Assembly (NCBI GenBank): GCA_018725535.1 | Contig: QLUS01000001.1 | Span: 1-49,065 of the forward strand | DNA: 49,065 nucleotides | Reading direction: 5' to 3' | DNA from: Bacillota bacterium | Lineage (GTDB): Bacteria; Bacillota; UBA994 | Program-made: the position numbers and the translations under genes | The notes under the pieces: model-generated | Told to the model about the DNA's origin: nothing | Database searches by the model: none | Seen by the model: the letters and a program-made list of their open reading frames with translations, nothing else | Part shown: piece after piece, positions 10,328 to 27,388 of the stretch | How the letters are laid out: each line of letters opens with the position of its first letter | How positions within the stretch are numbered: position 1 is the stretch's first letter

Positions 10328-10407
10328 TACTCCCCCTCCATTCCTAGTCTAAGGAAACTATAATCTGGGCAGACTCCAGCTTAGAGTGGGCAAAGGAGGG
10401 GTCTGCC

Positions 10408-10794: not shown

Positions 10795-10813
10795 GCAGAA
10801 AGAGGAGGGGAGG

Positions 10814-11260: not shown

Positions 11261-11270
11261 GGTGATTTGA

Positions 11271-11702: not shown

Positions 11703-11717
11703 CATTCCTTCTGGCAG

Positions 11718-11746
11718 TTGCTCGAGGCCAGCGGAACAGGTATACT
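11718..11746 (+). promoter_or_regulatory. Sigma-A-type promoter of the cobalamin riboswitch/btu operon
   Basis: TTGCTC, a 17-nt spacer, then TATACT, immediately upstream of the riboswitch. Confidence 0.5.
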
Positions 11747-11759
11747 GTAGGTGTCAACT

Positions 11760-11940
11760 AAATACGCTGTGGGGTGCCCCTAGGCTTAGGGGTTAAAAGG
11801 GAATCAGGTGTAAATCCTGAGCGGTCCCGCCACTGTAACGGGTAGTGCCTACACTTGACCACTGTTCGCGCGGCGAATGGAAGGGATTAGGCACGTTACT
11901 CCCGTAGTCAGGAAACCTGCCCCAGAGCTAAGACGCCGTC
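11760..11940 (+). ncRNA. Cobalamin (B12) riboswitch
   Basis: Conserved core AAAAGGGAATCAGGTGTAAATCCTGAGCGGTCCCGCCACTGTAA and B12 box AGTCAGGAAACCTGCC. P1 pairing is CTGTGGGG / CCCCAGAG. It is followed by a terminator and a btuFCD-type operon. Confidence 0.9.
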
Positions 11941-13076: not shown

Positions 13077-14107
13077 CAAAAAGACCTGCCGTAGTTCGCC
13101 ATTGGTCGGTCAACGCCCTCTTGGGTCTGCTATTGGTGCTGGCTCTGTTCCTGAGTTTGCGGGTGGGAGCGGTGGACATTGCTCCCACCCGCCTTCTTGC
13201 TGCTTTGCAGGAATTAGTGACGGAGCCTACGAATACTTGGTCAGTTGATGCCGTGATTGCTTGGCGGTTAAGATTGCCAAGAGCGCTGCTAGCTGCGGCT
13301 GTCGGCGCCGCCTTAGCCACAGCCGGAGCCATCATGCAGGGGCTCTTGCACAACAGTTTGGCCGACTCCTTTGTGCTCGGGGTGTCATCGGGTGCAAGTC
13401 TCGGCGCTGCTATTGCCCTGCTGCTCGGGCTACGGTTCACGCTGTTCGGCCTCGGCACCGTAACCCCGCTGGCGTTTATGGGGGCTATGCTGGCGATGCT
13501 TGCCGTGCTCATCATTTCGCGGCGGGTTGCGGGCCAGTCAACCCTCGGGCTGCTGCTTGCGGGGATCGCTATGAGCAGCGCTTTGTCCGCCGTAGTCTCC
13601 TTCTTAGTGCTATTGAGCCGCGAGCGCATTAACCCGCTCTTGTTCTGGATGATGGGAGGCTTCGCGGGCCGCGGTTGGAATCACTTCTGGCTGATGCTCC
13701 CCTACTTCTTTATCAGCTTCTTGTTTGCCTATAGCTATCATCGCTACCTCACGGCGATTAACCTCGGTGATGCTACCGCGCATCACTTGGGGGTAGATGT
13801 CGGCAGAGTACGTCTGCTCCTCCTCGCTACAGCAGCGCTGCTGACGGCGGCAGCGGTGTCCGTAAGCGGTATGATTGGCTTTGTTGGCTTGATGACGCCG
13901 CATTTCGCACGCATGCTGGTGGGACAGCACTACCGCCGCCTCTTGCCTACAGCGGCTATGTGCGGTGCCGTTTTCCTCGCTTTCGCCGACCTCTTAGCCC
14001 GTGTGGTCATGCGGCCGCAGGAGCTGCCGGTCGGGATCATCACTGCTTTATGCGGCGGACCGTTCTTCTTGTGGCTCTTATCGCGCCAGCGTCAGGAGGT
14101 GGCATGA
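13067..14107 (+). CDS. btuC: FecCD-family ABC transporter permease
   Basis: 346 aa, about 9-10 TM helices, FecCD signatures (RLPRALLAAAVGAALATAGAIMQ, GFVGLMTPH, GGPFFLWLL). The start overlaps btuF. Confidence 0.88.
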   Translation: MAVAKRPAVVRHWSVNALLGLLLVLALFLSLRVGAVDIAPTRLLAALQELVTEPTNTWSVDAVIAWRLRLPRALLAAAVGAALATAGAIMQGLLHNSLADSFVLGVSSGASLGAAIALLLGLRFTLFGLGTVTPLAFMGAMLAMLAVLIISRRVAGQSTLGLLLAGIAMSSALSAVVSFLVLLSRERINPLLFWMMGGFAGRGWNHFWLMLPYFFISFLFAYSYHRYLTAINLGDATAHHLGVDVGRVRLLLLATAALLTAAAVSVSGMIGFVGLMTPHFARMLVGQHYRRLLPTAAMCGAVFLAFADLLARVVMRPQELPVGIITALCGGPFFLWLLSRQRQEVA

Positions 14108-14916
14108 TGCCAGCCTTGAGTGTGGAGAACGTGTCATTTCGCTTTACTCAGCCTGTGCTCTGCGGCGTGTATGCGGACTTTGAGCAAGGCACTTTTTCGG
14201 GCATCCTGGGTGCAAACGGCGTAGGCAAATCAACCCTCGTTAAGCTAATCAGCCGTTGGTTGCCAATGCAGGATGGCGCGATCCGCGTCCACAACCGCCC
14301 GCTCGATACGTTTAATCAGCGCGAGCTGGCCCGCTATGTGGCCGTCGTTCCGCAGGAGCAGGCACATATCACGGAGCTGACAGTCCGGGAGATTGTAGAG
14401 CTTGGTCGCATTCCGCACCAAGGGTTACTTGCTCCCCCTACTGCGGCTGACAGGCGCGCAGTAGACGATGCGCTCGCACAGACAGGGCTACAAGGACTAG
14501 AGACGCGGAGCTTCGCCACGCTTAGCGGTGGGGAGCGACAGCGCGTACGCGTGGCTATGGCCCTAGCCCAGGCGGCCGACATCTTAATCCTCGATGAGCC
14601 TACATCCCATCTCGACATACGATATCAAATAGAGCTGTTGACTCTGCTGGGCGAACTAGTGACCAAGGGATACACAGTGGTAGCCGTGCTGCACGACATT
14701 AACCTAGCGGCGCTCTTTTGCGATCACCTAGTGCTACTCGCTGACGGTCGCGTGCTCCGCGCAGGCCCGCCAGCGGAGGTAATAACGCGTGAGGCCATCT
14801 TAGAGGCGTACCAATGCGATGTCTCGTTGCTTTCCCACCCGACAGTCAACGTACCCCAGATTGCGCTGACGCGCAATAGGAAGCAGCAAATTCCCGGGAG
14901 GGCTGTGTGTGATTGA
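14104..14916 (+). CDS. btuD: ABC transporter ATP-binding protein
   Basis: Walker A GANGVGKST, signature LSGGERQR, Walker B ILILDEPTSHLD. ATG 14104 overlaps the btuC stop (ATGA). The longer ORF-track start at 13960 lies inside btuC. Confidence 0.9.
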   Translation: MMPALSVENVSFRFTQPVLCGVYADFEQGTFSGILGANGVGKSTLVKLISRWLPMQDGAIRVHNRPLDTFNQRELARYVAVVPQEQAHITELTVREIVELGRIPHQGLLAPPTAADRRAVDDALAQTGLQGLETRSFATLSGGERQRVRVAMALAQAADILILDEPTSHLDIRYQIELLTLLGELVTKGYTVVAVLHDINLAALFCDHLVLLADGRVLRAGPPAEVITREAILEAYQCDVSLLSHPTVNVPQIALTRNRKQQIPGRAVCD

Positions 14917-16201
14917 TGTCCTAGTTGTAGGCGGCGGGGCGGCTGGATTGTCGGCGGCGATTGCTGCCGGGCGCGCGGGCGCAAAGGTAATGGTACTAGA
15001 GAAGCGGAACCGCCTCGGCAAAAAGATTCTCGCCAGTGGCAATGGCCGCTGTAATCTCAGTAACTTGAGCCTGTCACCGGGACACTTTGTTAGTCACGAC
15101 TTAGAGCTCCTCAGTCCGCTACTGGAGAAGTTCTCTGTCAGACATGCCTATGCCTATTGGCGAGAACTGGGACTAGAACTCACCACCGAGGACGGTCGCG
15201 TCTATCCCCGCACGATGCAGGCCAAGAGCGTCTTAGAGGTCCTCCTGCATGAGCTAACACGCCTTGACGCGCATCTAACGCTCAATGCTCCTGTCACCGC
15301 CATCCAAGCGCTAGATGTGTGTCAGGGGCTAGAGGTGGTGTTTCAGGATGAGAGCGCATTGCGGGCTCGCTCGGTTGTCTTGGCTACCGGTGGTAAAGCT
15401 GCTCTCCGCGGGCTTGATGTTGATGACATTTCCCAACTGGCTCGCTCGGTTGTCTTGGCTACCGGTGGTAAAGCTGCGCCGCAGCTCGGCTGCAGCGGAG
15501 ACGGGTACACTTTGGCGGCCGCGTTCGGGCATACGGTTGTACCGCCAGCACCGGCACTGGTCGGCCTGCGGCTGGCCAGCCCTTACCTCAAGCTGCTTTC
15601 GGGTTTACGCTTGCAGGCGCGAGTGTCCATACCCGAGCTGGCGCGAGAAGAAGCGGGAGAGGTCCTCTTTACTGACTACGGCATCTCTGGGATCCCGGTG
15701 TTTGACTTAACCGCGTATATCGGGCATGGCAAATCATTGACGTTGCACCTTTGTCTTGCGGAGCAAACGTGCCTTGCGGACCTCTGTGCCTTCCTAGAAG
15801 CTCGGCTAGAGTTCCTTTACCACAAAAACATACACGACGCTCTCCAGGGCTATGTCCCCACGCATCTCATAACGCCTCTCTTGCGCGAGGCAGGCCTACC
15901 TCCCGACCTACCCGCACACAAGGCACAAGGCAACCCTCTGACTAGACTTGCGACACTCCTATGGGACTGGACATTCCCTATCCTTGGACTTAACACATGG
16001 GAGCAAGCGCAGACCACGTGGGGCGGCGTGCCGTTAGGCGAGGTGGAAGTTCCATCCCTTAGGTCAAAAAAGCACCCCGGCCTATTTCTAGCCGGGGAAG
16101 TGCTTGATGTGCATGGCAGATGCGGCGGCTACAATCTTCACTGGGCCTTTGCCAGCGGCAAAGCAGCCGGGGAAAGTGCGGCCCTTTTGGGTACGTATTA
16201 G
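14909..16201 (+). CDS. HI0933/BaiN-type FAD-dependent oxidoreductase (aminoacetone oxidase family)
   Basis: DVLVVGGGAAGLSAA dinucleotide fold, GKKILASGNGRCNLSN, and C-terminal GEVLDVHGRCGGYNL. The GTG start overlaps the btuD stop by 8 nt. An internal 39-bp exact direct repeat is spaced 75 bp apart. Confidence 0.85.
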   Translation: MIDVLVVGGGAAGLSAAIAAGRAGAKVMVLEKRNRLGKKILASGNGRCNLSNLSLSPGHFVSHDLELLSPLLEKFSVRHAYAYWRELGLELTTEDGRVYPRTMQAKSVLEVLLHELTRLDAHLTLNAPVTAIQALDVCQGLEVVFQDESALRARSVVLATGGKAALRGLDVDDISQLARSVVLATGGKAAPQLGCSGDGYTLAAAFGHTVVPPAPALVGLRLASPYLKLLSGLRLQARVSIPELAREEAGEVLFTDYGISGIPVFDLTAYIGHGKSLTLHLCLAEQTCLADLCAFLEARLEFLYHKNIHDALQGYVPTHLITPLLREAGLPPDLPAHKAQGNPLTRLATLLWDWTFPILGLNTWEQAQTTWGGVPLGEVEVPSLRSKKHPGLFLAGEVLDVHGRCGGYNLHWAFASGKAAGESAALLGTY

Positions 16202-17091
16202 TTTGACACGAATCGTCCGCCGCTTGGGGCTAATACCTTAATGCCCCCCAGCACAATATGAGCATCTACAGGCGTGCTGCCGTAAACGGTGCCGTCAAAC
16301 ATCTTTGTCATGCTCCGCGCGGCAGAAATCTTGATAGTCCTGCAGGCAAAGAACTCCACGGCAGGGTGTCCTACATGTCCGCCGGAGTACACCTTCGGCA
16401 GCAGCGCAAGCAGGTCAAGCCTGCTAAGTTCGTTGACGAGACACACATGCAGCAGACCGTCATTGAGTTTCGCCTCGGGGGCTACATACATCCCGCCGCC
16501 CGTCCAGCAGGAATTCATAATAAACACCGCCACCGTCTTGCGGCACACCTTTTTGCCGTCAAGCTCAATCTCCATTTCCTCCGGCGTAAGCGCATGTATC
16601 ACCTTGACTACTGCTGCGGCGATGGCCAGCGGCCCGCGCAGGAAGTCTTTGTACTTGTTGACGTGAGTCATAACCTCCGACGTAAAGCCAAGACCTAGGA
16701 TCACGCCAAAGGCGGCGTCAGTGTCAACGCCATAGTCAATGGTGCGCGTAGGGGCGCTCGCCAGAGCACCCACAGCAGCGCTAATCTCAAGTGGTATGTT
16801 AAGTCCACGTGCCAAGTCGTTCCCCGTGCCGGTAGGAACAACCGCTAGAGTCGCATCCGAACCTATTAGGCCATTGAGCACCTCGTGGGCCGTACCATCG
16901 CCCCCCATTGCACCGACGACTTCCGCACCGTTTTGTACTAGTTCCCGCGCCAGCTCTGTGGCGTGGCGTGGTGCCTTAGTTAGATAGAGTCGATAAGGGA
17001 TATTTCTGGCTTGCAGTGCGCTTTCCATCAGCGGAAGCGCTTTTTGCGTTCGACCACGCCCGGCGATTGGGTTAACTACTATATGCCACAC
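16198..17091 (-). CDS. dagK: Diacylglycerol/lipid kinase (YegS/DagK family)
   Basis: IVVNPIAGRGR N-terminus and the MGGDGTAHEV catalytic motif. Confidence 0.82.
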   Translation of the reverse strand: MWHIVVNPIAGRGRTQKALPLMESALQARNIPYRLYLTKAPRHATELARELVQNGAEVVGAMGGDGTAHEVLNGLIGSDATLAVVPTGTGNDLARGLNIPLEISAAVGALASAPTRTIDYGVDTDAAFGVILGLGFTSEVMTHVNKYKDFLRGPLAIAAAVVKVIHALTPEEMEIELDGKKVCRKTVAVFIMNSCWTGGGMYVAPEAKLNDGLLHVCLVNELSRLDLLALLPKVYSGGHVGHPAVEFFACRTIKISAARSMTKMFDGTVYGSTPVDAHIVLGGIKVLAPSGGRFVSN

Positions 17092-17115: not shown

Positions 17116-17475
17116 CTAGTCGCGAGTCAATTGTTCGATGCGGATAATCACCCGGTTAGGCAAACACACAATAACTTCGCCTGGGCGGCTCTTTCTCCCC
17201 ATACCAATGCACACTTTGTCCGGACAGTCCGCTGTAACAACACGGATGTATTCGCCCTCTACCTCAATCAAAAGCATCCCGCGCGTGCCGCGCACAGTAA
17301 AACGACGCGCTGTCTCACCCGGGCGAAGCTGTACGCGTTGCACTTCACGATTATTCACTTCGATGATTGCCAGCCCACCGGGTTCTACAGCAAAGCGACG
17401 ATAAGCAACCCAAGCACCGATTAGCAGTGCCACAACAACCGCAAACAGGAGAATCTTCTTGTCTAGCGGGGTCAA
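17116..17475 (-). CDS. NusG domain II-containing (DUF1312) membrane-anchored protein
   Basis: N-terminal TM helix followed by a beta-rich domain with ADCPDKVCIGMG...IVCLPNRVIIRI, typical of the NusG_II family. It lies 18 nt downstream of the last Mrp gene. Confidence 0.7.
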   Translation of the reverse strand: MTPLDKKILLFAVVVALLIGAWVAYRRFAVEPGGLAIIEVNNREVQRVQLRPGETARRFTVRGTRGMLLIEVEGEYIRVVTADCPDKVCIGMGRKSRPGEVIVCLPNRVIIRIEQLTRD

Positions 17476-17493
17476 AGCCTCACCTCACATCTC

Positions 17494-19596
17494 TTATCTT
17501 AGGACTCTGATGCCCACCGTGTACAGCACAACGAGTACCACAAACATCACTCCTGCCACAACAAGTGAGCCTAACGTGACGTTTTGTGGATTCCAGGCCC
17601 CCGGTTGCTGCTCTGCTGCATCACTGTCGCTGCCTTCACTTCGCATTCTGCGCGTTGTTTCTACCGCCGCATGCCCGACGCGCGCATAGGCCTCCTCAAC
17701 CCCGTGTTCTAGCCCGCGCGCTTGGTCAACTACTAGGCTTGTGGTACGCTGAGCCGCCTCATACCCCTCGTCGAGCATAGCGTCGAGCTTTTTGACGCGA
17801 CGCAGTACACTATGCGACACAGTGCCACTCCGGTCGTACAGGTCGCATATGCCGCCCTCCACACGCGTGACGTAACGGCAGCAGAACCTAAGGAAGCCTT
17901 GGGTTATCGGGCGGTAGAGCAGCGCCTCGACGGACAACCACCAGGGCACCGTTCCTGCGCCAAACTTGAAGTGGCGCGCCGCAAAGAACACAAGCACCCC
18001 TATGGCGACAGGCACAGCTACCGCCGTATAGGAACTCACTGTCCACAGTTTGACGGCGGCTAGTTGCTCCGTCATTACGCCAAAATTAACTACCGTGCCA
18101 GCTGCGCTCCTCGACATAAGGCCCATCATCCGTTCCGGGAACAACCCTACCGCCACGATACTCCCAGCAACCAAGCCAAGTACGGCGGGAATGGTGACCC
18201 CCTCCTTGGCCCCAGAAACCAGCTTTCCGCGGTAGCTGCCTAAGAACACCCCGTAATAAAGCTTAATCAAATACGCCGCAGTCAAAGCGGAGCCCAAGAC
18301 AAACAGCCAAACCGCCCAAGTTAGGACTTGCTCGCCGTGATACGCCGCAGCCTTTTCTATCCCATACTGAACAAGTTTTTTGCTGCCAAACCCGCTTAGA
18401 CCCGGCACTCCAATGACGGCTAACGTGGCTACCAGCGTCGCAAACGCTGTAAAGGGCAACACTTTGGCCATACCACCTAGTTTCCCGAGCTCAAGCGACT
18501 GGGTACGCAAATACACCGAGCCCATCATCATAAACAGCCCCGCCTTGAAGACTGCATGGTTAAAGGCGTGAAACACGGCCGCAGTGTAGGGCAGGCCGCC
18601 TTTAGCGCCCAAATATGCGGCACAGCCTACGGCCAACATCACATAGCCCATCTGGCTGATGCTGGAATAGGCCAAGAGACGCTTGACGTTCTTTTGCAAC
18701 AAAGCCATGACCGCACCGCAAAGGATGGTCAGCAACGCTACCCAAATGAGCGTAAAACCAATGTTCATCGGTATCGCGGCCGTGCCCTTGCTAGGCAACG
18801 GTGAAGACAGTGTGACGGTGAGCACACTGAGTATGCCGTAAAAGCCGGTCTTCCCCATTACACCCGACAAGAGAGCCGTGGCAGGGGCTGGGGCTACAGG
18901 ATAGGTATGTGGTATCCAGATGTGCAGCGGAACCAAGCCCGCCTTTACTCCAAACCCAATCAAAAATACTAGTGCCACCATATAAGGGCTAATCGCTCCG
19001 CCTTGCAGTTTGTCAAGCGCAGGTACAATGTCCGCAGTGCCGGTCGACCACACCAGCATAAGAATGCCTAACAGCAGCACCAGTCCGCCGGCCACTCCCA
19101 TGTAAAGGTAGCTGTCGCCTGCCCGCATAGCCTCGTCATCCTCATCGTGAATGACGAGTGGATAGGCAGCAAAGGTCATGATTTCGAAAAACAGAAACAG
19201 CGTAAAGTAGTCTCCCGCCAGAAAAACACCTAAGCAGCCGCTAAGGCTGACCAGCAGGAAGCTTGAAAAACGCGTCTGCGAATGGCTGTGCCGCATATAG
19301 CTGAGTGCGTAACAAGAGATTAACGCCCAAAGCCCCGCCGAGAGCAGAGCGAACAGCGTGCCTAGATTAGTCGGGCGAAAGCTGAGGCCATAGTCTACTA
19401 AACGAAAGAAAACTAATTGTAAGCGGTACTCAGGATTTAAGAGATAGATTGCGGCCGTCCCAGCAAACGTAAGGAACACTGTGACGACAATCAGTGCATC
19501 TTGCACTCGCTTACGAGCGCGGGAGAGGAACACGAGGCCGGCACCAAAGAGCGGCAGGAGAATCGGTACGAGCAACAACAAGTCTAGCGAATGCAT
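17494..19596 (-). CDS. MrpA/NuoL-like proton-conducting antiporter subunit with C-terminal extension
   Basis: 700 aa. The ND5/NuoL/MrpA-type core carries FFEIMTFAAYPLV, WIPHTYPVAPAPATALLSG and AYSSISQMGY. A charged C-terminal extension of about 190 aa ends in a TM helix (LGSLVVAGVMFVVLVVLYTVG), reminiscent of the NuoL lateral helix and anchor. Confidence 0.8.
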   Translation of the reverse strand: MHSLDLLLLVPILLPLFGAGLVFLSRARKRVQDALIVVTVFLTFAGTAAIYLLNPEYRLQLVFFRLVDYGLSFRPTNLGTLFALLSAGLWALISCYALSYMRHSHSQTRFSSFLLVSLSGCLGVFLAGDYFTLFLFFEIMTFAAYPLVIHDEDDEAMRAGDSYLYMGVAGGLVLLLGILMLVWSTGTADIVPALDKLQGGAISPYMVALVFLIGFGVKAGLVPLHIWIPHTYPVAPAPATALLSGVMGKTGFYGILSVLTVTLSSPLPSKGTAAIPMNIGFTLIWVALLTILCGAVMALLQKNVKRLLAYSSISQMGYVMLAVGCAAYLGAKGGLPYTAAVFHAFNHAVFKAGLFMMMGSVYLRTQSLELGKLGGMAKVLPFTAFATLVATLAVIGVPGLSGFGSKKLVQYGIEKAAAYHGEQVLTWAVWLFVLGSALTAAYLIKLYYGVFLGSYRGKLVSGAKEGVTIPAVLGLVAGSIVAVGLFPERMMGLMSRSAAGTVVNFGVMTEQLAAVKLWTVSSYTAVAVPVAIGVLVFFAARHFKFGAGTVPWWLSVEALLYRPITQGFLRFCCRYVTRVEGGICDLYDRSGTVSHSVLRRVKKLDAMLDEGYEAAQRTTSLVVDQARGLEHGVEEAYARVGHAAVETTRRMRSEGSDSDAAEQQPGAWNPQNVTLGSLVVAGVMFVVLVVLYTVGIRVLR

Positions 19597-19611
19597 AAGT
19601 TTTGCCCTCCC

Positions 19612-20323
19612 CTATTTGACCGTCAAGAAAAGGGAGTGGGCCGCCCTCTCTGCCAGCTCTAAAGCTATATTGTATGGCAACAGATCAATGATCAAAATTA
19701 CTGCGGCGAGCACAACCATAGGAACCAGCATGGCTAGAGGCACATCCCGCTTAGTTTGCGCCTGCGCAGTATGGGCAAGACCTTCGCCAAAGAAAGCGTT
19801 TTGTATGAGCGGGAATAAGCATAAGATACCTGTAGCCCGCGCGCATCGCTTCGGCAGTCTCTTCATGTATGACTAGGACATACGCCGAAAGCGACATCAT
19901 CTCAAAAAACAGGAAGAAGGTAAACAAGTCGCCGCTCAAAATAACACCCATGGCCCCCGCTAAGGTTAGCACCGAGAAAGGATAATACCGGTTCTTGGCA
20001 TGCTCCTTGACCATGTAGACGGTACTATAGATGGTCACTAACAGCCATACAAAGGAAACTACTGCCGCAACAAGAAACCCCAAATGATCCATGCGGAAAG
20101 AAACGCCAAGCGGCGGTAAGAGCTCAGGGAATTCCGCCACTAGCGTTACATCGGCCATAATGGTGCGGTAGTGCTGTACCACCAGCAAGAACGAGGATAG
20201 AGCTGCTGCCACGGAAAGGCCGTTGCGCAGCTGCCATGACCGTTGCCCGACGGCGTAGATGACGACGGCAAGCATCAGGGGCACCATCACGGGCAGAGTC
20301 AACGCATAAGACGTAGCTTGCAC
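19612..20323 (-). pseudogene. MnhD/NuoN-like antiporter subunit remnant (large internal out-of-frame deletion)
   Basis: ORF 20323..19751 encodes only the first 170 or so residues of an MnhD-like protein, up to FFEMMSLSAYVLVIHEETAEAMRAGYRYL, then runs out of frame. The overlapping ORF 19866..19612 carries only the C-terminal end (LFPLIQNAFFGEG...MLVPMVVLAAVILIIDLLP). Compare the C-terminus of the intact 488-aa paralogue, YFPIIISAFFGRD. Confidence 0.65.
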
Positions 20324-20338
20324 ACTAAGGCCTCCAGT

Positions 20339-21805
20339 TTATCTCACGAAGAGAAGCGCGGTTTGACGTACTAGGGGAACCATGAGCGAGGGAAACATCC
20401 CAAAGAAGAAAACCATACCAGCAAGTACTGCTACAGGCGCGAGCACGGCAAAGGCCGGGTCTGTCGCTTCCGCATCGCTGTCTCTGCCAAAGAACGCTGA
20501 GATAATTATGGGAAAGTAGTAGGCTGCGTTAAGCAAACTGCTAATGAGAATAAGCACCGCAAAGACCAGCATATCAGCATCAAGTGCCCCGAGCGCAAGA
20601 TACAACTTAGAGATAAACCCAGCCGTCCCAGGCACACCTACCATGGACATAGCGCCAATCGTGAAGGCCGCGAACGTGAGCGGCATCTTGCGCCCTAAGC
20701 CACTAAACTGAGACAATTTCTTAATACCGCTCTGATGAATAATCACGCCTGCAGTTAAGAACAATAAGGACTTCATCACGGCGTGATTAAGAATGTGCAG
20801 CACTCCACCCTCAATAGCGCGCTGATTAAACAAGCCAAATCCAAGGAAGATACACCCTACTTGCGCGACGGTGGAAAAGGCCAGTAGGCGCTTGACATTA
20901 TCCTGCACCATGGCAAAGACTGAGCCGGCTACCAGCGCTCCTGTGGAAAGGGCTAAGAAGAGGTGACGTATTGGGAACAGCGCAAAGATTTCCAGACCTA
21001 ATGCTAAGTAGGCAATCCGCATGAGGGCGATAATGTACACCTTCACAACCAATCCGCTAAGCAAGGCGCTCGATGCCGTAGGGGCATTAGAGTGCGCATC
21101 CGGCAGCCACACGTGCATGGGAAAGAGCGCCGCCTTGACGCCAAAGCCTACAACCATCAAGCCTATCGATGTCAAGAGGTTTAAGGGATATTGCTCGGCG
21201 GTCACCATAAGCGTTGTGCGGATGTAATCCATATTGAGGTGCCCAGTGATCATAAAAATCAAAGCGATGCTAAACAGCAATCCCCCTGACCCCAAGGCGC
21301 TAAGGACAAGGTAGCGGAAACTCGCTTCCACGCTCTCTTTGGTACCCTTAATGGCGATGATGGCTATCGCTGCAAGTGAACTAATCTCGATAAACACAAA
21401 GAGATTAAACAAGTCCCCGGCCATGACCATACCCTGCATCGCTGCAGTGAGCAGCAGAATGAGCGTAAAATAGGCGCCGTTATGCCTGACCTCGCGTGGA
21501 CCGAAGGCCGCAAACCAGAAGATAATCAAAGCGACGGTGGCCAAGACGAGAGAAGAGTAGGCCGCAAAAACATCAACCAAGACCACTATACCATACGGCG
21601 CTGGCCACCCACCTACAGGATAGCTAAGCGTGCCTTGCGCCAACACCCGCAGCGTCATGCCAACCGAAAGTACAAGGGCCACCACCCCTGCCCCTAGGAA
21701 AACCGCATTTGTTGCTGCTTGGCGTTTGCCCAACAGCGGAGTAATAAAGGCAGCCAAGAGCAACACCGCGACAATAAGAACTGGCGCATGCATAAACTCA
21801 GGCAT
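20339..21805 (-). CDS. mnhD: Mrp antiporter subunit D (MbhH/NuoN-like)
   Basis: 488 aa, about 14 TM helices, with motifs FVFIEISSLAA, WLPDAHSNAPTASSALLSG and AFSTVAQVG. Confidence 0.88.
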   Translation of the reverse strand: MPEFMHAPVLIVAVLLLAAFITPLLGKRQAATNAVFLGAGVVALVLSVGMTLRVLAQGTLSYPVGGWPAPYGIVVLVDVFAAYSSLVLATVALIIFWFAAFGPREVRHNGAYFTLILLLTAAMQGMVMAGDLFNLFVFIEISSLAAIAIIAIKGTKESVEASFRYLVLSALGSGGLLFSIALIFMITGHLNMDYIRTTLMVTAEQYPLNLLTSIGLMVVGFGVKAALFPMHVWLPDAHSNAPTASSALLSGLVVKVYIIALMRIAYLALGLEIFALFPIRHLFLALSTGALVAGSVFAMVQDNVKRLLAFSTVAQVGCIFLGFGLFNQRAIEGGVLHILNHAVMKSLLFLTAGVIIHQSGIKKLSQFSGLGRKMPLTFAAFTIGAMSMVGVPGTAGFISKLYLALGALDADMLVFAVLILISSLLNAAYYFPIIISAFFGRDSDAEATDPAFAVLAPVAVLAGMVFFFGMFPSLMVPLVRQTALLFVR

Positions 21806-22169
21806 GTCGTCTACTCCTTAGGGCAATAATTTTGTCGGCGTCAATTGTGCCGTACTGCTTGTGTAGTAGTACAACCAGCGCTAAGGCAAAAGCGGTGAAA
21901 CTTACAGAAATAACTATGCCTGTAAGGATAAGCGCTGAAGGCACGGGGTTAACGTACTGTATAACCCCCTCCCTAAGGATAGGCGCTTGTCCGCCGCGTA
22001 TATAGCCAATGGAGACAAAGAACAAGAATAGCGACGTGTCCATGATGTTCATGCCCATTATTTTCTTTAGCAGGTTGTTGTGCGTAAGCATAGTATGAAA
22101 GCCAATAATGAAAAGTACAACTGAGATTAAATAGTAGATGTTCGTGTACAGGCGCTCAATGATGACCAT
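21798..22169 (-). CDS. mnhC: Mrp antiporter subunit C (MbhG/NuoK-like)
   Basis: IGFHTMLTHNNLLKKIMGMNIMDTSLFLFFV is typical of MnhC. ATG 22169 is preferred because GGAAGGAGGTG lies upstream. The ORF-track start at 22238 is inside mnhB. Confidence 0.85.
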   Translation of the reverse strand: MVIIERLYTNIYYLISVVLFIIGFHTMLTHNNLLKKIMGMNIMDTSLFLFFVSIGYIRGGQAPILREGVIQYVNPVPSALILTGIVISVSFTAFALALVVLLHKQYGTIDADKIIALRSRRHA

Positions 22170-22611
22170 CCGGTTCCGCACCTCCTTCCAACAGCTCTTG
22201 GAACAACTTAAACACGGTGCCCGCAACCTTAGCTCCAATGCCTAGCGTCACCAGTAAAATCATGCCGCTACTCCACAGACGCCCCGGCTCGCCAATCGGG
22301 AACACTCCCTGATTAGTAAGGAAATGTCTCCCAAACAATATGCCCACAAGCCCCGACCCTACATAGATCAGTGCGCCGCCCACCTCAAACCAAAGAGAAG
22401 TCTCGTGCTTGAGGCGGTGCTTTTTGTCCGAAAACCTATACACAAGGCTGTAGAATATAAAACTCGCGCCAATAATCGTGCCCCCGGAGAAACCACCACC
22501 AGGCGACAAATGACCATGAAAGAGAATATATGCGCCAAAAAGCTGCGTCGCTGGAATAAGAATGCGGCCAAGCATCTCAAGAATCATGTCATGCATGCTC
22601 ATAGCCTCCAT
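22156..22611 (-). CDS. mnhB: Mrp antiporter subunit B (MbhF-like)
   Basis: The MnhB domain motif HGHLSPGGGFSGGTIIGASF is present. The start is ambiguous: ATG at 22611, 22602, 22596 or 22587. Confidence 0.85.
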   Translation of the reverse strand: MEAMSMHDMILEMLGRILIPATQLFGAYILFHGHLSPGGGFSGGTIIGASFIFYSLVYRFSDKKHRLKHETSLWFEVGGALIYVGSGLVGILFGRHFLTNQGVFPIGEPGRLWSSGMILLVTLGIGAKVAGTVFKLFQELLEGGAEPDGHH

Positions 22612-22870
22612 AGAGTGCTGCCGTCACAGCGATGACGGCCACAAACAACACCGTAGCCTCACCTAAGGTATCGTAAGCGCGGTAATCAATGATGATGGCG
22701 GCAATGGTGTTAATAGCTCCGGTATCGCGCGCGCTATCGGCCAAGTACTTTTGCATAATGCCTTGGTGAGCGGGAGCCTCTGGGTCGCCATATAGCGGCA
22801 TTTCCACGACCATCAGAAATAAGAGTGTCAGCAGACCGAGCAAGATGACTATTGTCAAGGTCTTTCTCAT
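22589..22870 (-). CDS. MbhE-like small Mrp subunit (MnhB-related N-terminal module)
   Basis: 93 aa, 2 TM helices, with GAINTIAAIIIDYRAYDTLGEATVLF typical of the MrpA-C-terminal/MbhE segment. Confidence 0.7.
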   Translation of the reverse strand: MRKTLTIVILLGLLTLLFLMVVEMPLYGDPEAPAHQGIMQKYLADSARDTGAINTIAAIIIDYRAYDTLGEATVLFVAVIAVTAALYGGYEHA

Positions 22871-23109
22871 TCTTCATGCCTCCCCGTGCGGCTGATGGCA
22901 GCGAGAAACAAGAGCGAAGTCGCGCCCGCACCAATAGCAGCCTCGGTAATGGCTACGTCTGGGGAATGGAGCTGCTGCCAGATGATCGACATAACCATGC
23001 TGTAGGCACCGAAAATAATCGTGGCGCTGAGCAGATCCTTGGTACGGGCCACGACTATGGCACAGACTACAAGAAACAACAACAAGAGCAGGTTAATCGC
23101 CGCCAGCAT
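22867..23109 (-). CDS. MbhD-like (DUF4040) small Mrp subunit
   Basis: 80 aa with 3 TM helices (LLSATIIFGAYSMVMSIIWQQLHSPDVAITEAAIGAG). It overlaps its neighbours by 4 and 17 nt. Confidence 0.7.
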   Translation of the reverse strand: MLAAINLLLLLFLVVCAIVVARTKDLLSATIIFGAYSMVMSIIWQQLHSPDVAITEAAIGAGATSLLFLAAISRTGRHEE

Positions 23110-23401
23110 GCTTGTCCCTCCCCTGCGTCCGGTATACCGCTCGCGCCATGTAATGTGCGGCGGCCGGGGCCGTAACCCACAAAAAGACGATCAGCAAGAC
23201 AACTTTAAGCACTAGGTACATGCTGCCGCCCTCAAAAAACATCAGCCCGACCAGCACCATCCCCGCGCCTAAGGTATCGCACTTGGTTGTAGCGTGCATG
23301 CGAGTTAGTGCGTCCGGGAACCGCAACAAGCCGACAGTGCCTGCGGTGAAAAAGAACAGGCCACCTAGCAAAAAGGCTATACCGATTACAGTTGCAATCA
23401 T
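23093..23401 (-). CDS. mnhG: Mrp antiporter subunit G
   Basis: GTVGLLRFPDALTRMHATTKCDTLGAG is the MnhG signature. Confidence 0.85.
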   Translation of the reverse strand: MIATVIGIAFLLGGLFFFTAGTVGLLRFPDALTRMHATTKCDTLGAGMVLVGLMFFEGGSMYLVLKVVLLIVFLWVTAPAAAHYMARAVYRTQGRDKHAGGD

Positions 23402-23414
23402 AGGTTCATCCCTC

Positions 23415-23684
23415 TCATACTATAGTGCCCCGCTCAATGTAGCGAGCCACCCCAATAGTTAACAGGAAGCTAATCAGTGCATACACCATTGCCACATCTA
23501 AGTAGTACGGGACTTCCTGAAAGATATAGCCAATTAGCATCAACACAACCACGGTCTTCGTGCCAATTACGTTAATCGCCACTACCCTGTCCGCTGGCGT
23601 AGGCCCTACAATGGCCCGGTACAAAGACGCAAACGTCAAAAGCATAAGTCCCAAACAGGTAACTAAGAGCGCGGTCAGTTCCAT
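23415..23684 (-). CDS. mnhF: Mrp antiporter subunit F
   Basis: 89 aa with LYRAIVGPTPADRVVAINVIGTK, typical of MnhF. Confidence 0.82.
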   Translation of the reverse strand: MELTALLVTCLGLMLLTFASLYRAIVGPTPADRVVAINVIGTKTVVVLMLIGYIFQEVPYYLDVAMVYALISFLLTIGVARYIERGTIV

Positions 23685-24178
23685 TAGTGTCGCCTCTCAA
23701 TCTCAACCAGCAAATTCTCGATATGCCAGCCCTTAAGTCCAGCCGCAGCACCGTCCGTAAGGGCATGTACTACGAATTCTCCTTGCGCCGGAGCCTCAAC
23801 AGAGATGGTGCCGGGCGTCAGCGTAATGCTGTTTGCTAGAAAGACTCGCATCATTGGCTCCTTAAGCTTACTCTCGTGCGCGACAAACTGCGGGTTTAAG
23901 GCAAGGCGACGGGCAAAGGCAAGTTCGGCCACCTGTACTGAAGCCTTAAACACATCAATGATTAAAAAGCCAGTGTATTTTATCCACGCAGAGAGGTTCC
24001 CGCGGCTGACATGCAAGTCATTCGCGAAGCTGAGCAACAGGTCCCGATTAACAAAGGCAACCAGACCAGCCACCAGCCAGCCTGTAATCAGCGACTGAAT
24101 GTCAAAGCTCTGGGCAAACAGCATCCAAAGCAAAAACAAGGCGAGAGTCCATCCAAATAGGCGCATATACCGCGACAT
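23684..24178 (-). CDS. mnhE: Mrp antiporter subunit E
   Basis: 164 aa with two N-terminal TM helices followed by the soluble MnhE domain (ITLTPGTISVE). The stop overlaps the mnhF start. Confidence 0.8.
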   Translation of the reverse strand: MSRYMRLFGWTLALFLLWMLFAQSFDIQSLITGWLVAGLVAFVNRDLLLSFANDLHVSRGNLSAWIKYTGFLIIDVFKASVQVAELAFARRLALNPQFVAHESKLKEPMMRVFLANSITLTPGTISVEAPAQGEFVVHALTDGAAAGLKGWHIENLLVEIERRH

Positions 24179-24258
24179 TACTTACCCCCCACAAACATAA
24201 GAGCTACCACCAGCATGACGGCAGCCCTATAGTTTCACTTTGTGCTCGCACCACGAAC

Positions 24259-25103
24259 TTATTTGCTTGGTGCCTTTTCTAGAGCCTCGATCACCGCTTG
24301 CACAAACCCTTCGCTTGAGCCGGTGGCACCCGAAACGGCGTCAACCTCTGGATCCTGCTCCCTGATGACTGCCCGCGTAAGCTCCACAAACGCCGCATTG
24401 GCGTACTCCGGCGTATCCTCATGGGCTACGACACGTACGTTTTCCACCCTGCCGGACTTGACCGTGACGGACACTTTAATGGTTCCAAACAAACCGCGTC
24501 CTTCGCCCGGATACTCCCCGTCAGGAATTGTGGCGATGTCCCGCGTAAACCTGTCTACCGGAACAGGCGCAGCCCCCCCAGTACGTGCTGCTGGAACAAG
24601 GCTAGCGCATTTCTAACCCCAGTGGTTACACCGCGTACAGACAATGTCGCGCCGGAGATGGCCTGTATGTCGCCTCCCACAGCAAGCGGGTCACGCACAG
24701 TTTTACCCGTAAACTGCCCGAGAAAAGCAGGCGCAGTCACCCGGTCGCCAATCCCCGGCGTCTCACGCTGTCCGGTAATGCGCACGCCCCGCACCGCGCC
24801 AGCCATATCCACTGCGACGAGCAAGCTAATCGGGCCGGCATAGCCGCCACCCGCACTCTGCATGATCGCACCTACTAGCTTCCCATCCTTAGTGGCAAGA
24901 AAATAGGTAATATTATCGCGTGAAGTTTCCTCAAACTTGTCCGCCATAGGAAAAAGCTCACCGAGAGCGCGCTGTAGTTCTGCTTGTTTACGCTCTGAGA
25001 TAACCGCGCTAGTGACGGAGTAGGTAGCTGCTAAGGCTGCCCCCGCTATGGCACAGATTAATGCGAGCGTTACGCTAAGCTTAAAGACATCCTTCATCAA
25101 CAA
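24259..25103 (-). pseudogene. RnfG-like membrane-anchored protein with two FMN-binding domains, split by a frameshift in a G7 run
   Basis: ORF 25103..24555 has an N-terminal TM anchor and an FMN_bind domain (GDIQAISGATLSVRG). ORF 24492..24259 is the C-terminal part of a second FMN_bind domain (FGTIKVSVTV...EVDAVSGATGSSEGF). The missing N-terminal part (AAPVPVDRFTRDIATIPDGEYPGEGRGL) is open in the second frame. Adding one G to the G7 tract (24573..24579) fuses everything into 282 codons. Confidence 0.7.
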
Positions 25104-25160
25104 TCCCCTGCCTCGGTTAGCTATAGCATTTCCTTGCTTATTCTAGCACAGAGTAGCCGC

Positions 25161-26222
25161 CTAACCAAGAGAAAGATGCCCCCGCGAGTAAAGCACGAGG
25201 AAGTCCCGCGCTGCGCGCTCCCACGTAAACGCACGGCTCCGCAGAAGACTAGCCTGGGCCATTGTCTGGCGTTGACTGGGATTTGACACTGCCGCGTCAA
25301 GCCCGTTTGTCCAAGCGTTCGCATCCGCAATTGGCGGATAGTGCCCGGCATGCGGCCCTACTACTTCCGGCACACTCCCCCTAAAACTTGCTACAATTGG
25401 CAATGCCGTGCCCATGGCGGGCAGACAAATGTGACCGTCTGCTGCACGATCCTGTGCAGGCTACAGAAACATGTCGGCGGCTCGATACACCTTTGGTATA
25501 AGAGCATCTACAGCGATTACTCTATCTGAAGAGACCATAGGCGAGCTACCCACCACCACGAGCCTAAGGCGGCTTAGTGCCGCAGTAGACCAGCAATGGA
25601 GGAGCAACTCCCGCCCTTTATCGCCATGCGGCGCGTAGGCCAATAACGCCAGCGTTTCATCTGGTTCCACTGCCCAGAGCATACGCTGTCTTAACCTCTC
25701 CCGCATAAGGCCCCTGTCAGAGAGGGCGGGACGAAAGACCGACCCATCGACGCCGGGATAAACGACATTCACCCATAGCCGCAGACCATAATACCTGCCA
25801 ACAAAGAGGCTCTTCAGGAAGAAACTGCTGAGCACAACTTGATCCACCCAACAGAGGGACATGCGCAAAGCACGGCGCGAAATCGCGTCGCCCGAGAGAG
25901 GCGGCAGCGAATGTAAATTTAACACCACATATCCTTGGAAAACTTGACGCACCTCGGGCACTAACCAAGGGCAGTTCTCAACTTGCACTACAGTCGGTCG
26001 CGTCTCCCTGAGAACCGGCCTGAGCACATCCGCACGCGGCGGGAGCGGCCAGCGGTACAGGCGTACACCTAACAACTCCGGCACTTCCATGTTCGCCGGC
26101 AGGACCATTGCGACCTCTATACCCTGCCTAGAAAGGAGAGCAGCCATCTTAAAGACATGTAGGTGTGACTCGTCCCCCGCAAGTCTCGGCACGTCCGGCG
26201 GCAGTACATACAGAACTTTCAC
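25161..26222 (-). pseudogene. GT-B (family 1/4-like) glycosyltransferase interrupted by an in-frame TAG
   Basis: ORFs 26222..25461 and 25415..25161 are in the same frame: ...YRAADMFL-TAG-PAQDRAADGHICLPAMGTALPIVASFRGSVPEVV.... This spans the usual GT1 C-terminal motif region (ADvfv.PS..E.fG...lEAMa.G.PvVas), whose acidic residues are degenerate here. Confidence 0.6.
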
Positions 26223-26285
26223 TTTGCTCTCCCCTCACGCACACTTTTCCTCAGTGTACGCAATCGGAGCAGGAACCGTGAGCCT

Positions 26286-26963
26286 TTAGAGGCTACGAAA
26301 GATTAGATACAGGCCTACGCCAACAAACAACAGACCCGCAACATATGCTCCAAAGTCCCAATATCTGCTTAAGCCCCGCCATGTTCGCAGGGCCCCAGCT
26401 ACACTTCCCACGACAAGCAAAGGCACGCCCTGACCCAAGCCAAAGGCAAACAACAATAACCCGCCTGTGAAAATTCGCCCGGAGGCCGCAGCAACGCCGA
26501 CGATAATCCCAAGCACCGGGCCCGCGCAGGGTGAGGCTGCGAGCCCAAACGCCAGTCCCACCAAGAAGGCCCCAAACAAGCCATGTGCCCGTACGGGCAT
26601 CTTAGCGATACTTTTCGTAGGTAGATGAATCATCTGCATTAAGCTAAGTCCCATGATGAGTAAAACAACCCCAAGCAGCACAGGGGCGATATTGGACGTG
26701 ATGCCAATTATGCCGCCTAGGAGAGCCGCCATAAGGCCGAGTGCCGTAAACGCCGTAGAAAGTCCCAGTACTAGGCTCAACACCAGAAAAAGGCTGCGCC
26801 GTGTCTTAATGCTCCCACTGACGCCTACATATCCCAAAACCAAAGGCATCATGGCGATAATGCAGGGGGAAAGGCTCGTTAAGACCCCAGCGGCAAATGA
26901 AGCCAGTAGCGCTAGACCTAGATGTCCGACGAGTATACTTTGCAGTGACTCAAGCGTTATCAC
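26286..26963 (-). CDS. ccdA: Cytochrome c biogenesis / thiol-disulfide electron transporter CcdA (DsbD family)
   Basis: Six TM helices with the two conserved Cys motifs (LSPCIIAMMPL and ASPCAGPVLG). The GTG start overlaps the upstream TGA (GTGA). Confidence 0.88.
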   Translation of the reverse strand: MITLESLQSILVGHLGLALLASFAAGVLTSLSPCIIAMMPLVLGYVGVSGSIKTRRSLFLVLSLVLGLSTAFTALGLMAALLGGIIGITSNIAPVLLGVVLLIMGLSLMQMIHLPTKSIAKMPVRAHGLFGAFLVGLAFGLAASPCAGPVLGIIVGVAAASGRIFTGGLLLFAFGLGQGVPLLVVGSVAGALRTWRGLSRYWDFGAYVAGLLFVGVGLYLIFRSL

Positions 26964-27388
26964 GGGGCCATCCCTCGAACAAGAAAGCGCCGCAGTTCCT
27001 CCTTAGACATGCTGCCGACCGCGTGGTGTTCCCGTCCGTTTGCATCGATCATAACAAAGTGGGGGATCGCCCGAAGATTAAAGCGACGCCCTAGCTCTAT
27101 GGTTTCATCTACCCTAATGTCCGCTACAATAAAAGTAACTCGCCCGAACTCGGCTTTAAGCTCCCGCACCGCGGGATACATTACTACACAGGAACGTCAC
27201 GTATCGGAAGTGAACATCACGAAAACCGGCACGCGCTCTGCAGTCGCCCGCTGAAACTCCGTCAAGGGCATGGCCGTTTTAAGATCGTCCCCGCCGCTGG
27301 GTCGCGCAAGGAACCAAGCCACAACTGCCACGAGCAGCACCAGTAAGACGGATACGCTACGCTTCACCGCCGCCACCCTCCCAAACAT
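26960..27388 (-). CDS. Membrane-anchored thioredoxin-like protein, predicted selenoprotein (U-x-x-C)
   Basis: Two in-frame ORFs are joined through TGA 27199..27197. The product has a TM anchor (VLLVLLVAVVAWFL) and a thioredoxin fold VPVFVMFTSDT-U-RSC-VVMYPAVRELKAEFG...AIPHFVMIDANG. The UGA falls at the first Cys position of CXXC, and a SECIS-like hairpin lies 21 nt downstream. Confidence 0.65.
27162..27176 (-). promoter_or_regulatory. Candidate bacterial SECIS hairpin
   Basis: The mRNA reads UGA, then 20 nt, then UCCCGC-GGU-GCGGGA (6-bp GC-rich stem, G-containing apical loop about 27 nt from UGA). A possible outer helix AGUAA/UUACU encloses it. Confidence 0.45.

Follow-up and report, generated by a model that had tools for sequence, protein, structure and literature searches.

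The DNA analysed here, a 49,065-nt stretch of contig QLUS01000001.1 (assembly GCA_018725535.1, Bacillota bacterium; hereafter the window), contains on its minus strand an uninterrupted run of genes in which a gene for a membrane-anchored protein with two flavin mononucleotide (FMN)-binding domains (hereafter the FMN gene) directly precedes a cluster encoding an Mrp-type Na+/H+ antiporter, followed in turn by a gene for a NusG_II-domain protein. Genes were called as six-frame open reading frames (ORFs) with Pfam matches, and NCBIfam curated cut-offs were applied to the FMN and Mrp proteins. An initial annotation of the window had suggested that the Mrp module may be coupled to a flavin- or thiol-based redox module on the outer side of the membrane. 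The gene content and order that it gave for the run agree with the ORFs and Pfam matches, its short intergenic gaps were borne out (15-80 nt), and the absence of a hydrogenase or complex-I partner was likewise found, none occurring among the window ORFs. All features of the run described below lie on the minus strand.

The FMN gene (24259-25097) is frameshifted in the window and matches Pfam FMN_bind twice. Flavinylation motifs, as first pointed out in the initial annotation, are present in both domains (DIQAISGATLS and EVDAVSGATGS) and are kept in nearly all relatives. By curated family score, sequence and fold, the protein is a homologue of RnfG, a subunit of the Rnf ferredoxin:NAD+ oxidoreductase, with which it shares an N-terminal transmembrane (TM) anchor and an FMN_bind domain carrying the S-G-A-T site. 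It scores 123.6 bits against the NCBIfam rnfG model TIGR01947 over residues 9-169, above the family cut-off of 102, and its residues 4-175 align end-to-end with RnfG of solved Rnf complexes (PDB 7zc6_G, E 2.4e-20). A model of a 92%-identical intact relative, predicted with AlphaFold2 (AF2; mean confidence score pLDDT 83) and compared by Foldseek, matches the RnfG structures of Acetobacterium woodii (9eri_G) and Clostridium tetanomorphum (7zc6_G) with TM-scores of 0.72 and 0.70, respectively. The second FMN_bind domain of the model resembles a domain of the characterised multi-FMN protein 8p2b (TM-score 0.87), and this extra C-terminal domain recalls the multi-flavinylated RnfGs, which are a described class (Meheust et al. 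2021, PMC8238504). Unlike rnfG genes, the window gene has no rnfC, D, E, A or B beside it or anywhere else in the 49 kb, and it appears to head an mrp operon from a promoter of its own.

Hydropathy predicts a single N-terminal TM segment at residues 4-22 of the FMN protein. No other region of the protein is as conserved as this anchor, where 14 of 32 positions are invariant; the two domains have 28 invariant positions out of 115 and 16 out of 84. This argues for a specific membrane partner. In relatives the protein is intact, 274-366 aa long, and has two or three FMN_bind domains. The first domain deviates in two of the sequences: at the UBA994 locus L009 (3673-4512) it reads T-N-A-T and not S-G-A-T, and protein P0002 is without the first flavinylation motif. 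Flavinylation of the first domain may thus be missing in some members.

Compared with intact 279-aa relatives, the window copy (the fragment P0008, MBT9175737.1) has a 1-nt deletion in a G7 run at 24572-24578. A G7 homopolymer is a classic site of errors. The ratio of nonsynonymous to synonymous substitutions (dN/dS) of the FMN gene against its relatives is 0.06-0.10, and that of the intact Mrp genes mnhE, mnhD and A subunit is 0.04-0.11, all being rough values as dS exceeds 1 in these comparisons. Judged from these ratios, purifying selection on the FMN gene in relatives is as strong as that on the Mrp genes. The gene is not a dead pseudogene in all strains, a case that the initial annotation had named as counting against its proposal; it is intact and under purifying selection in relatives. 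On the branch leading to the window, dN/dS is as low as in the intact genes; the lesions in the FMN gene and in one mnhD gene (see below) are therefore either very recent or assembly errors.

The genes that follow represent the complete set of Mrp subunit families A to G. They encode MnhE (23684-24178; Pfam MNHE), MnhF (23415-23684; MrpF_PhaF), MnhG (23093-23401; PhaG_MnhG_YufB), an MbhD-like protein (22867-23109; MbhD), an MbhE-like protein (22589-22870; MbhE), MnhB (22156-22611; MnhB), an MnhC/NuoK-like subunit (21798-22169; Oxidored_q2), an MnhD/NuoN-like antiporter subunit of 488 aa (20339-21805; Proton_antipo_M, E 3.6e-64; NCBIfam MrpD/NuoN), the remnant of a second mnhD (19612-20323), recognised by alignment with the intact 493-aa genes of loci L001 and L009, and an MrpA-N/NuoL-like A subunit of 700 aa (17494-19596; the second intact Proton_antipo_M match, E 2e-52). 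MbhD, MbhE and MnhB align with the MrpA C-terminal and MrpB models of NCBIfam, and by these alignments the MnhB, MbhE-like and MbhD-like proteins correspond to a split MrpA C-terminal part plus MrpB, the so-called 'BBB' arrangement. MnhC has 123 aa in relatives, and the real start in the window is probably the ATG that gives this length. For the window MnhD, an exact look-up gave no record.

The A subunit has a NuoL/MrpA-N-like layout. The lateral-helix-like tail attributed to it in the initial annotation is supported by hydropathy and amphipathicity, with about 15 hydrophobic segments, an amphipathic stretch of about 110 aa and a last TM segment, and the charged channel residues E138, K218, K249, H343, H347 and K406 are invariant in a 7-sequence alignment. 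The subunit measures 700-745 aa across the loci of the window type defined below. The tail (17494-17900) contains amphipathic repeats of about 22-25 aa with the pattern DxGYxxxG...ARxLDxGV; their number varies among L001, L003, L004, L008 and L010, giving subunits of 700-828 aa, the shortest being those of the window and UBA994. The second mnhD has undergone an out-of-frame internal deletion of about 770 nt at microhomology, with its junction near 19797-19825. The dN/dS of the N-terminal part that remains is 0.07, by which the loss is either recent or an artefact of assembly. The other Mrp genes of the window are all intact. The idea that the deletion was offset by the shorter lateral helix was ruled out, since L009 has an equally short tail and an intact second mnhD. 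The second MrpD is also broken, into 99 and 171 aa, in Unc8 (B9J77_03475-03485; PMC6305446 supplement), an unrelated metagenome-assembled genome (MAG) from a serpentinite environment assigned to NPL-UPA2.

The NusG_II-domain protein (17116-17475; Pfam NusG_II, E 1.4e-25) has a predicted TM segment at residues 7-25. It is followed by a DagK/YegS-type lipid kinase gene (16198-17091; Pfam DAGK_cat and YegS_C), the last gene of the run. The strong, intrinsic-terminator-like hairpin found after dagK (16075-16097; 8 pairs, 7 of them G-C, tail TGCTTTTTTG) is likely the end of the transcription unit.

The neighbourhood was compared in a sample of 12 related, window-type loci in which the identity of the FMN protein goes down to about 50%. 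The window-type order was recorded at L001-L005, L008 and L009 and, through a metagenome scan, at L095, L096, L098, L099 and L100-L102. The shared order is HD/OB protein-thioredoxin (Trx)-CcdA-[GT4 glycosyltransferase]-[80-aa ORF]-FMN-mnhE-F-G-mbhD-mbhE-mnhB-C-D-D-A-NusG_II, with the FMN gene always directly upstream of mnhE and a NusG_II gene following the A subunit in all loci. The FMN_bind-Mrp-NusG_II neighbourhood noticed in the initial annotation is thus conserved around every relative of the FMN protein found. The position of dagK is not kept in all relatives, L004 and L008 having a convergent HI0933-like gene after NusG_II.

Transcription signals place the FMN gene with the Mrp genes. 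All 12 loci have, 34-69 nt before the start of the FMN gene, a motif resembling an extended -10 element (TGTGnTAnAAT), which in the window reads TGTGCTAGAAT (25140-25150) and stands 43 nt upstream of the gene start. A sigma-70 scan of the window region gave no promoter, and the motif emerged only from the aligned relatives. The spacer from the FMN gene to mnhE contains, in 9 of the 12 loci, a hairpin (GCTRCCGTC...GGTGGTAGC) and, after it, a T-rich tract that borders the ribosome-binding site of mnhE. In the window this element occupies 24200-24228 and the hairpin has 15 pairs, with G-U/A-U changes and three compensatory changes among relatives, and it is a candidate attenuator or mRNA-stability element. 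The statement of the initial annotation that no convincing terminator separates the two genes is therefore only partly right, given that this conserved hairpin and T-rich tract are present. No space for a promoter remains between the hairpin and mnhE; this and the conserved -10 motif lead to the conclusion that the FMN gene heads the Mrp transcription unit, as the initial annotation had it, and the genes from FMN to NusG_II are probably a single transcription unit.

The genes upstream of this promoter have a different standing. A CcdA/DsbD-type thiol-disulfide membrane transporter (26286-26963; Pfam DsbD_TM, E 1.8e-23) and a membrane-anchored thioredoxin-like selenoprotein with a UxxC site (26960-27388; TM residues 10-28) are encoded beside the locus in all window-type loci, yet upstream of the conserved promoter. 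CcdA is the only transmembrane electron-transfer component near the FMN gene, and it lies beyond both this promoter and a GT4 glycosyltransferase gene (25161-26222). The GT4 gene between CcdA and the FMN gene is intact in L001, L003 and L004, absent from L009, L101 and L102, and dead in the window, where it has an in-frame TAG (25461-25463) and a degenerate catalytic region. Its dN/dS of 0.26 with a dN of 0.47 identifies it as an old pseudogene, and it is not part of the conserved unit. The initial annotation had included the Trx/CcdA pair among the possible components of the FMN-Mrp system; with a conserved promoter and a dispensable GT4 gene intervening, this part of the proposal was not sustained, and the pair belongs to an upstream transcription unit.

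The selenocysteine (Sec) assignment of the thioredoxin-like protein held up well. The TGA codon (27197-27199, in the context T-U-R-S-C) aligns with the first cysteine of the CxxC motif of the Cys-type proteins of L004 and L008 (G-C-S-S-C), and a hairpin resembling a selenocysteine insertion sequence (SECIS) at 27162-27176, UCCCGC-GGU-GCGGGA, is found downstream of the TGA only in loci with the TGA and is absent from the Cys loci. The folding energy of this hairpin by itself is not significant (z = -0.34). A conserved ORF of 79-89 aa without a Pfam match was also observed between GT4 or CcdA and the FMN promoter in L003 (9556-9795), L004 (9615-9863), L008 (9594-9863), L101 and L102; it occurs in the lineages with three-domain and 274-aa FMN proteins and not in the lineage of the window.

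Regarding the origin of the DNA, the closest species-level genome in the collection scanned is 'Firmicutes bacterium UBA994' (L009), and the window belongs to a lineage of Bacillota_D, class UBA994 ('SRB2'), from serpentinite springs. MAGs of this class, under Firmicutes_D, were obtained from the Hakuba Happo and The Cedars serpentinite springs (Nobu et al. 2022, PMC9751293 supplement), and the habitat of these MAGs is anaerobic and hyperalkaline, at pH ~11. One of them, HKB214, carries MBT9171764, an accession neighbouring that of the window's FMN fragment. Use of glycine reductase, a selenoprotein, has been reported for the class (PMC9751293), in agreement with the Sec codon of the thioredoxin-like gene. 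The label 'candidate division NPL-UPA2' carried by the 92%-identical relatives was dropped, as the published NPL-UPA2 MAG Unc8 is arranged differently and the UBA994 relatives are listed under Firmicutes_D class UBA994/'SRB2' in the PMC9751293 supplement. In Unc8 the order is fhs-mrp, and Rnf, with its own RnfG, and ApbE are encoded at other sites (PMC6305446 supplement).

Outside the run, the window encodes housekeeping functions and also contains a cluster of tRNA genes and a cobalamin riboswitch. Six-frame ORFs and Pfam gave no gene for ApbE, Rnf, a hydrogenase or complex I anywhere in the 49 kb, nor was one for Ndh2, EetB, FmnA, FmnB, NapH, MsrQ or PepSY found in the window. The riboswitch (11755-11938, plus strand; Rfam RF00174, 99 bits) precedes genes for a BtuF-like binding protein, a FecCD permease and an ABC ATPase (12177-14916, plus strand). 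Between a CCA-adding-enzyme-like gene and the riboswitch, about 1.4 kb (10327-11755) has no ORF of at least 150 aa and could be a pseudogene or non-coding. Eight tRNA genes lie on the minus strand at 98-174 and 2091-2868, seven of them clustered (Leu, Cys, Gly, Phe, Asp, Val and Arg). Two M14 carboxypeptidase-like genes, also on the minus strand, encode 585 aa (202-1959) and 820 aa (30285-32747); the first matches the profile in two stretches and may be truncated.

In order to place the antiporter among its relatives, an A-subunit alignment was searched against 185,579 species genomes, which yielded 80 loci; their genes were assigned with our own hidden Markov models and their flanks with Pfam. 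The order E-F-G-MbhD-(MbhE)-B-C-D, with 2-4 antiporter-like genes, is common in Lachnospiraceae, Oscillospiraceae, other Clostridia, Actinomycetota and others, and most of the surveyed Mrp loci have heterogeneous flanks. Loci L038-L087, from gut or rumen Lachnospiraceae, Oscillospiraceae and other Clostridia, show the order E-F-G-MbhD-B-C with four antiporter-like genes, D-D-D-A. The initial annotation had related the E-F-G-MbhD-MbhE-B-C-D order, that of MbhA-H, to redox-driven Mrp modules. This argument is not supported, as about 60 stand-alone Bacillota clusters share the order and have flanks without a redox partner; the order is therefore not diagnostic of a redox-driven complex. Hydrogenase or complex-I families were none of the 25 commonest families among 177 flanking ORFs of related loci. 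Clusters of the anaerobe 'BBB' type have in fact already been filed as antiporters, both in Natranaerobius, with 'three overlapping mrpB genes' (PMC5703873), and in Unc8, with 'MrpEFGBBBCD, MrpDD' (PMC6305446).

A second result of the survey is that genes for Rnf, ApbE, NusG_II, PF07456 (EetB) or FMN_bind proteins recur in the flanks of this Mrp clade, as the initial annotation would predict. PF07456 is EetB, the flavin adenine dinucleotide (FAD)-binding subunit of an exporter supplying ApbE; it is colocalised with eetA in 3,328 genomes and, within Clostridia, with rnf in 572 (PMC9973259). In 'Ca. Contubernalis alkaliaceticus' (L006) the order is rnfCDG(270 aa)EAB-moaC-mnhEFG-mbhD-mbhE-BCDD-A, and ApbE and 'EetAB' were annotated right after the antiporter genes of this organism (PMC10608574). 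A complete rnf operon with a G homologue lies directly upstream of the same Mrp type in a Dethiobacter sp. (L089), and an rnf-mrp-apbE-PF07456 series occurs at L011, L012, L014-L016, L046, L065 and L069 (ApbE Pfam E 2.5e-91). The apbE gene follows the A subunit at L011, L012, L014, L015, L018, L046, L065, L069, L072 and L086. Other arrangements include rnfCDG(469 aa)EAB-D-A-NusG_II-PF07456 at L007, an rnf operon divergently adjacent to Mrp in Acutalibacteraceae (L050, L053, L055, L060 and L070), and rnfCDGEAB-NusG_II-PF07456 with no Mrp at L093. Two contigs of distant lineages, both too short to show the upstream side, carry flavin genes right after the A subunit: in a rumen Clostridia locus (L072, 890-6580) these are ApbE, NusG_II and a three-domain FMN_bind protein, and in Symbiobacterium (L013, 2053-8291) they are a fumarate-reductase-like (Fr-like) flavoprotein, NusG_II, PF07456 and a four-domain FMN_bind protein.

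Overall, an rnf or RnfG-like gene is found upstream at 20 of the 56 loci with a visible upstream side (9 of 32 clusters at 60% identity), and ApbE, NusG_II, EetB or FMN_bind genes are found downstream at 20 of 68 loci, frequencies that are biased upward by the inclusion of A subunits from rnf-linked clusters among the survey queries. Even in this biased sample the flavin/Rnf association is far above chance, which by our own rough estimate would give less than 1% (an rnf operon of about 6 kb in a genome of 2-4 Mb). A neighbour-joining (NJ) tree of the A subunits puts the window-type clade together with L007, as a neighbour of the clade linked to rnf. The NusG_II gene precedes PF07456/EetB in L093, L007 and L013, and a NusG_II gene beside PF07456/EetB after rnf is a known flavin-trafficking context (PMC9973259), as the initial annotation held for such proteins. 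The NusG_II protein would by this position be EetA-like. An outright equivalence with EetA was set aside, papers on the subject not documenting it.

The locus can thus be compared with several known systems. It shares the Mrp type, an RnfG homologue upstream and flavin-trafficking genes downstream with the rnf-(moaC)-mrp-apbE-eetB blocks of Dethiobacteria and 'Ca. Contubernalis', from which it differs in having no rnfC, D, E, A, B, moaC, apbE or eetB while keeping the G-like and NusG_II genes. Like the anaerobe ('Group 3', 'BBB') Mrp of Natranaerobius thermophilus and Unc8, it has E-F-G, a split MrpA C-part with B, C, D, a further D and a NuoL-like subunit; unlike these, window-type loci start with an RnfG-like gene and have NusG_II after the cluster, Unc8 having fhs upstream. 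With the Mbh and Mbs systems (hydrogenase and sulfane reductase) it shares the E-F-G-MbhD-MbhE-B-C-D order of MbhA-H and the Pfam MbhD and MbhE matches, but it is without MbhI-N/NuoB, D, H or I-like genes and has a lateral-helix NuoL-like subunit and a second MrpD. The extracellular electron transfer (EET) locus of Listeria (PplA, EetA, EetB, FmnA, FmnB, Ndh2) offers a parallel in PplA, an extracytoplasmic protein with two FMN_bind domains, in the small membrane protein beside PF07456/EetB in window relatives and, presumably, in dependence on ApbE/FmnB; the window protein is anchored by an RnfG-type TM helix and not by a lipoprotein signal, and Ndh2, EetB, FmnA and FmnB are not encoded in the window. 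By the published definitions of ApbE-dependent flavinylated systems (PMC8238504), the window has an FMN_bind substrate with its motif and no apbE in the cluster. The recurrent rnf-mrp-apbE/eetB block and its reduced UBA994 form were not found described in the literature searched, which gave no match for 'Rnf-Mrp' and in which the components of the rnf-(moaC)-mrp-apbE-eetB block are annotated separately. Mrp is not mentioned in a 2025 RNF/NQR review, nor in the flavinylation survey (PMC8238504).

The link between the FMN gene and the Mrp genes is real and conserved, but no showing of a redox-driven antiporter comes with it. As both genes flanking the Mrp cluster in the window are usual neighbours in rnf operons, the window looks like a reduced rnf-mrp supra-operon. 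The explanation towards which the evidence tips, by a modest measure, is that the locus is a reduced rnf-mrp-flavin-maturation block, in which a conventional Mrp antiporter is co-expressed with an RnfG-derived flavoprotein and the two are coupled through ion-cycle physiology. An ancestral rnf-mrp-(apbE/NusG_II-eetB) block would have been trimmed in class UBA994 to its G, mrp and NusG_II genes. The FMN protein, seen in the initial annotation as part of an arrangement without a characterised example, is no new type of Mrp partner but an RnfG homologue, whose adjacency would be explained by this descent. The Mrp complex would act as a conventional secondary Na+(K+)/H+ antiporter, using the membrane potential for acidifying the cytoplasm and recycling Na+ at pH ~11. 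The RnfG-like protein would be flavinylated by ApbE on the outer face of the membrane and serve as an electron carrier there, its TM helix docking to a partner in the membrane, for which an Rnf-type RnfD/E core with genes at another site is the likeliest candidate. Rnf-type pumps would thus create a gradient that Mrp converts, the link consisting of co-expression and a shared Na+/H+ circuit, with electrons not driving Mrp, and the FMN-mnhE hairpin would probably set the ratio of flavoprotein to Mrp expression.

Several observations weigh against this explanation. An NJ tree of RnfG N-domains leaves the window protein outside the RnfGs of the Dethiobacteria rnf-mrp loci, its neighbours being the orphan three-domain proteins P0019/20 and actinobacterial RnfGs; the tree thus does not confirm that the G gene descends directly from the neighbouring operon. 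One orphan three-domain FMN protein (L094) has neither Mrp nor Rnf nearby. No apbE lies in the window, and no RnfD from window-type genomes was among the best 120 hits of two RnfD searches, the second of which used an actinobacterial query; among these hits, no accession lay close to MBT9175737 or to the MBS/MBT9 accessions of the FMN proteins. The flavin genes of L072, L013 and L086 follow the A subunit with no rnf visible on their short contigs, which fits a direct link between Mrp and flavin genes as well. The upward bias of the survey frequencies and the roughness of the dN/dS values are further points against it.

The most far-reaching alternative is that the RnfG-like protein, possibly with the NusG_II protein, is itself a subunit of the Mrp complex, or that the sister lineages have Rnf and Mrp joined in a supercomplex, with flavin electron transfer on the outer face driving or gating ion translocation. 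In its favour, the adjacency of the FMN gene to mnhE and their shared promoter are invariant in the 12 loci, the conserved TM anchor implies a specific membrane partner, flavinylation genes flank the Mrp clade in various ways (rnf co-directional, rnf divergent, and the sets of L072 and L013), and in Dethiobacteria mrp lies between rnfB and apbE, apparently in one unit. Nevertheless, nothing indicating that electron transfer drives the Mrp module, as the initial annotation had proposed, was found in this analysis. The Mbh and Mrp structures show that Mbh has its redox arm in place of the MrpA-N/NuoL-like subunit and its lateral helix. Here that subunit is present, and no membrane electron-input module (NuoH/B/D/I-like or similar) occurs in the window or in the flanks of its relatives. 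Furthermore, most clusters of the same type have no flavin gene nearby (35 of 56 upstream, 48 of 68 downstream), a sister clade of the FMN protein stands without Mrp (L094), the FMN gene and mnhE have a conserved, terminator-like hairpin between them, and no fusion proteins were seen. Direct coupling of this kind is thus quite improbable. Its broader form, in which the anaerobe-type Mrp clade (split MrpA, 2-4 antiporter-like subunits) is a physical partner of flavin redox systems, through an Rnf-Mrp supercomplex in Dethiobacteria and some Clostridia or through a UBA994 RnfG-like protein docked on Mrp, perhaps with NusG_II, must be regarded as a long shot; if true, redox turnover on the outer face would drive or gate Na+/H+ translocation, as a flavin-coupled counterpart of Mbh and complex I.

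The flavoprotein could also be an orphan, Rnf having been lost and the RnfG-derived protein with its two or three flavins working in an Rnf-independent extracytoplasmic chain, either PplA-like or fed with thiol electrons by CcdA and the Sec-thioredoxin, so that its position before mrp would be a relic beyond shared transcription. This is possible, though doubtful. The lack of an RnfD attributable to window-type genomes within the RnfD hits mentioned above agrees with it, as do the change between two and three FMN domains within the clade, as in wire-like multi-flavin proteins, the stand-alone genes of the closest relatives P0019/20, the CcdA and Trx genes adjoining all window-type loci, and the existence of DsbD-associated flavinylation systems (PMC8238504). 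The known DsbD-linked flavinylated substrates, however, are DUF3570 proteins and not FMN_bind proteins (PMC8238504), the RnfG-typical anchor motif is invariant and the rnfG family cut-off is still passed, CcdA and Trx lie upstream of the conserved promoter and beyond the dispensable GT4 gene, and the window has no Ndh2, EetB, NapH, MsrQ or PepSY gene. A further explanation, confined to this strain, is that the module is being lost; the FMN gene, the second mnhD and GT4 would then be true pseudogenes, and the unit as a whole would have stopped working. This is suggested by the presence of three lesions in a stretch of 7 kb (the frameshift, the ~770-nt deletion at microhomology, and the in-frame stop and high dN of GT4), and the second MrpD is fragmented in the unrelated Unc8 as well; but on the window branch the FMN gene and the mnhD remnant have dN/dS values as low as those of intact genes, which makes their lesions very recent or errors, the other Mrp genes are intact, and relatives at 80-92% identity carry intact copies, so that decay is an unlikely account of the locus.

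Under the preferred explanation of a reduced rnf-mrp-flavin-maturation block, every component belongs to a known family, namely (multi-flavinylated) RnfG, anaerobe-type Mrp, NusG_II/EetB flavin trafficking, and CcdA with a Sec-thioredoxin. A caution for the family is that the 'Mbh gene order' should not be read as evidence for a redox-driven complex. If the picture holds, Rnf and the machinery for flavin export and flavinylation (ApbE, EetB, NusG_II) are recurrent genomic partners of one Mrp clade, which would offer a testable idea of how a Na+-pumping redox complex may be wired to a Na+/H+ exchanger in anaerobes living at pH ~11. An RnfG-type flavoprotein kept without its operon would, in addition, constitute a natural experiment on the roles of RnfG outside, or far from, the Rnf core.

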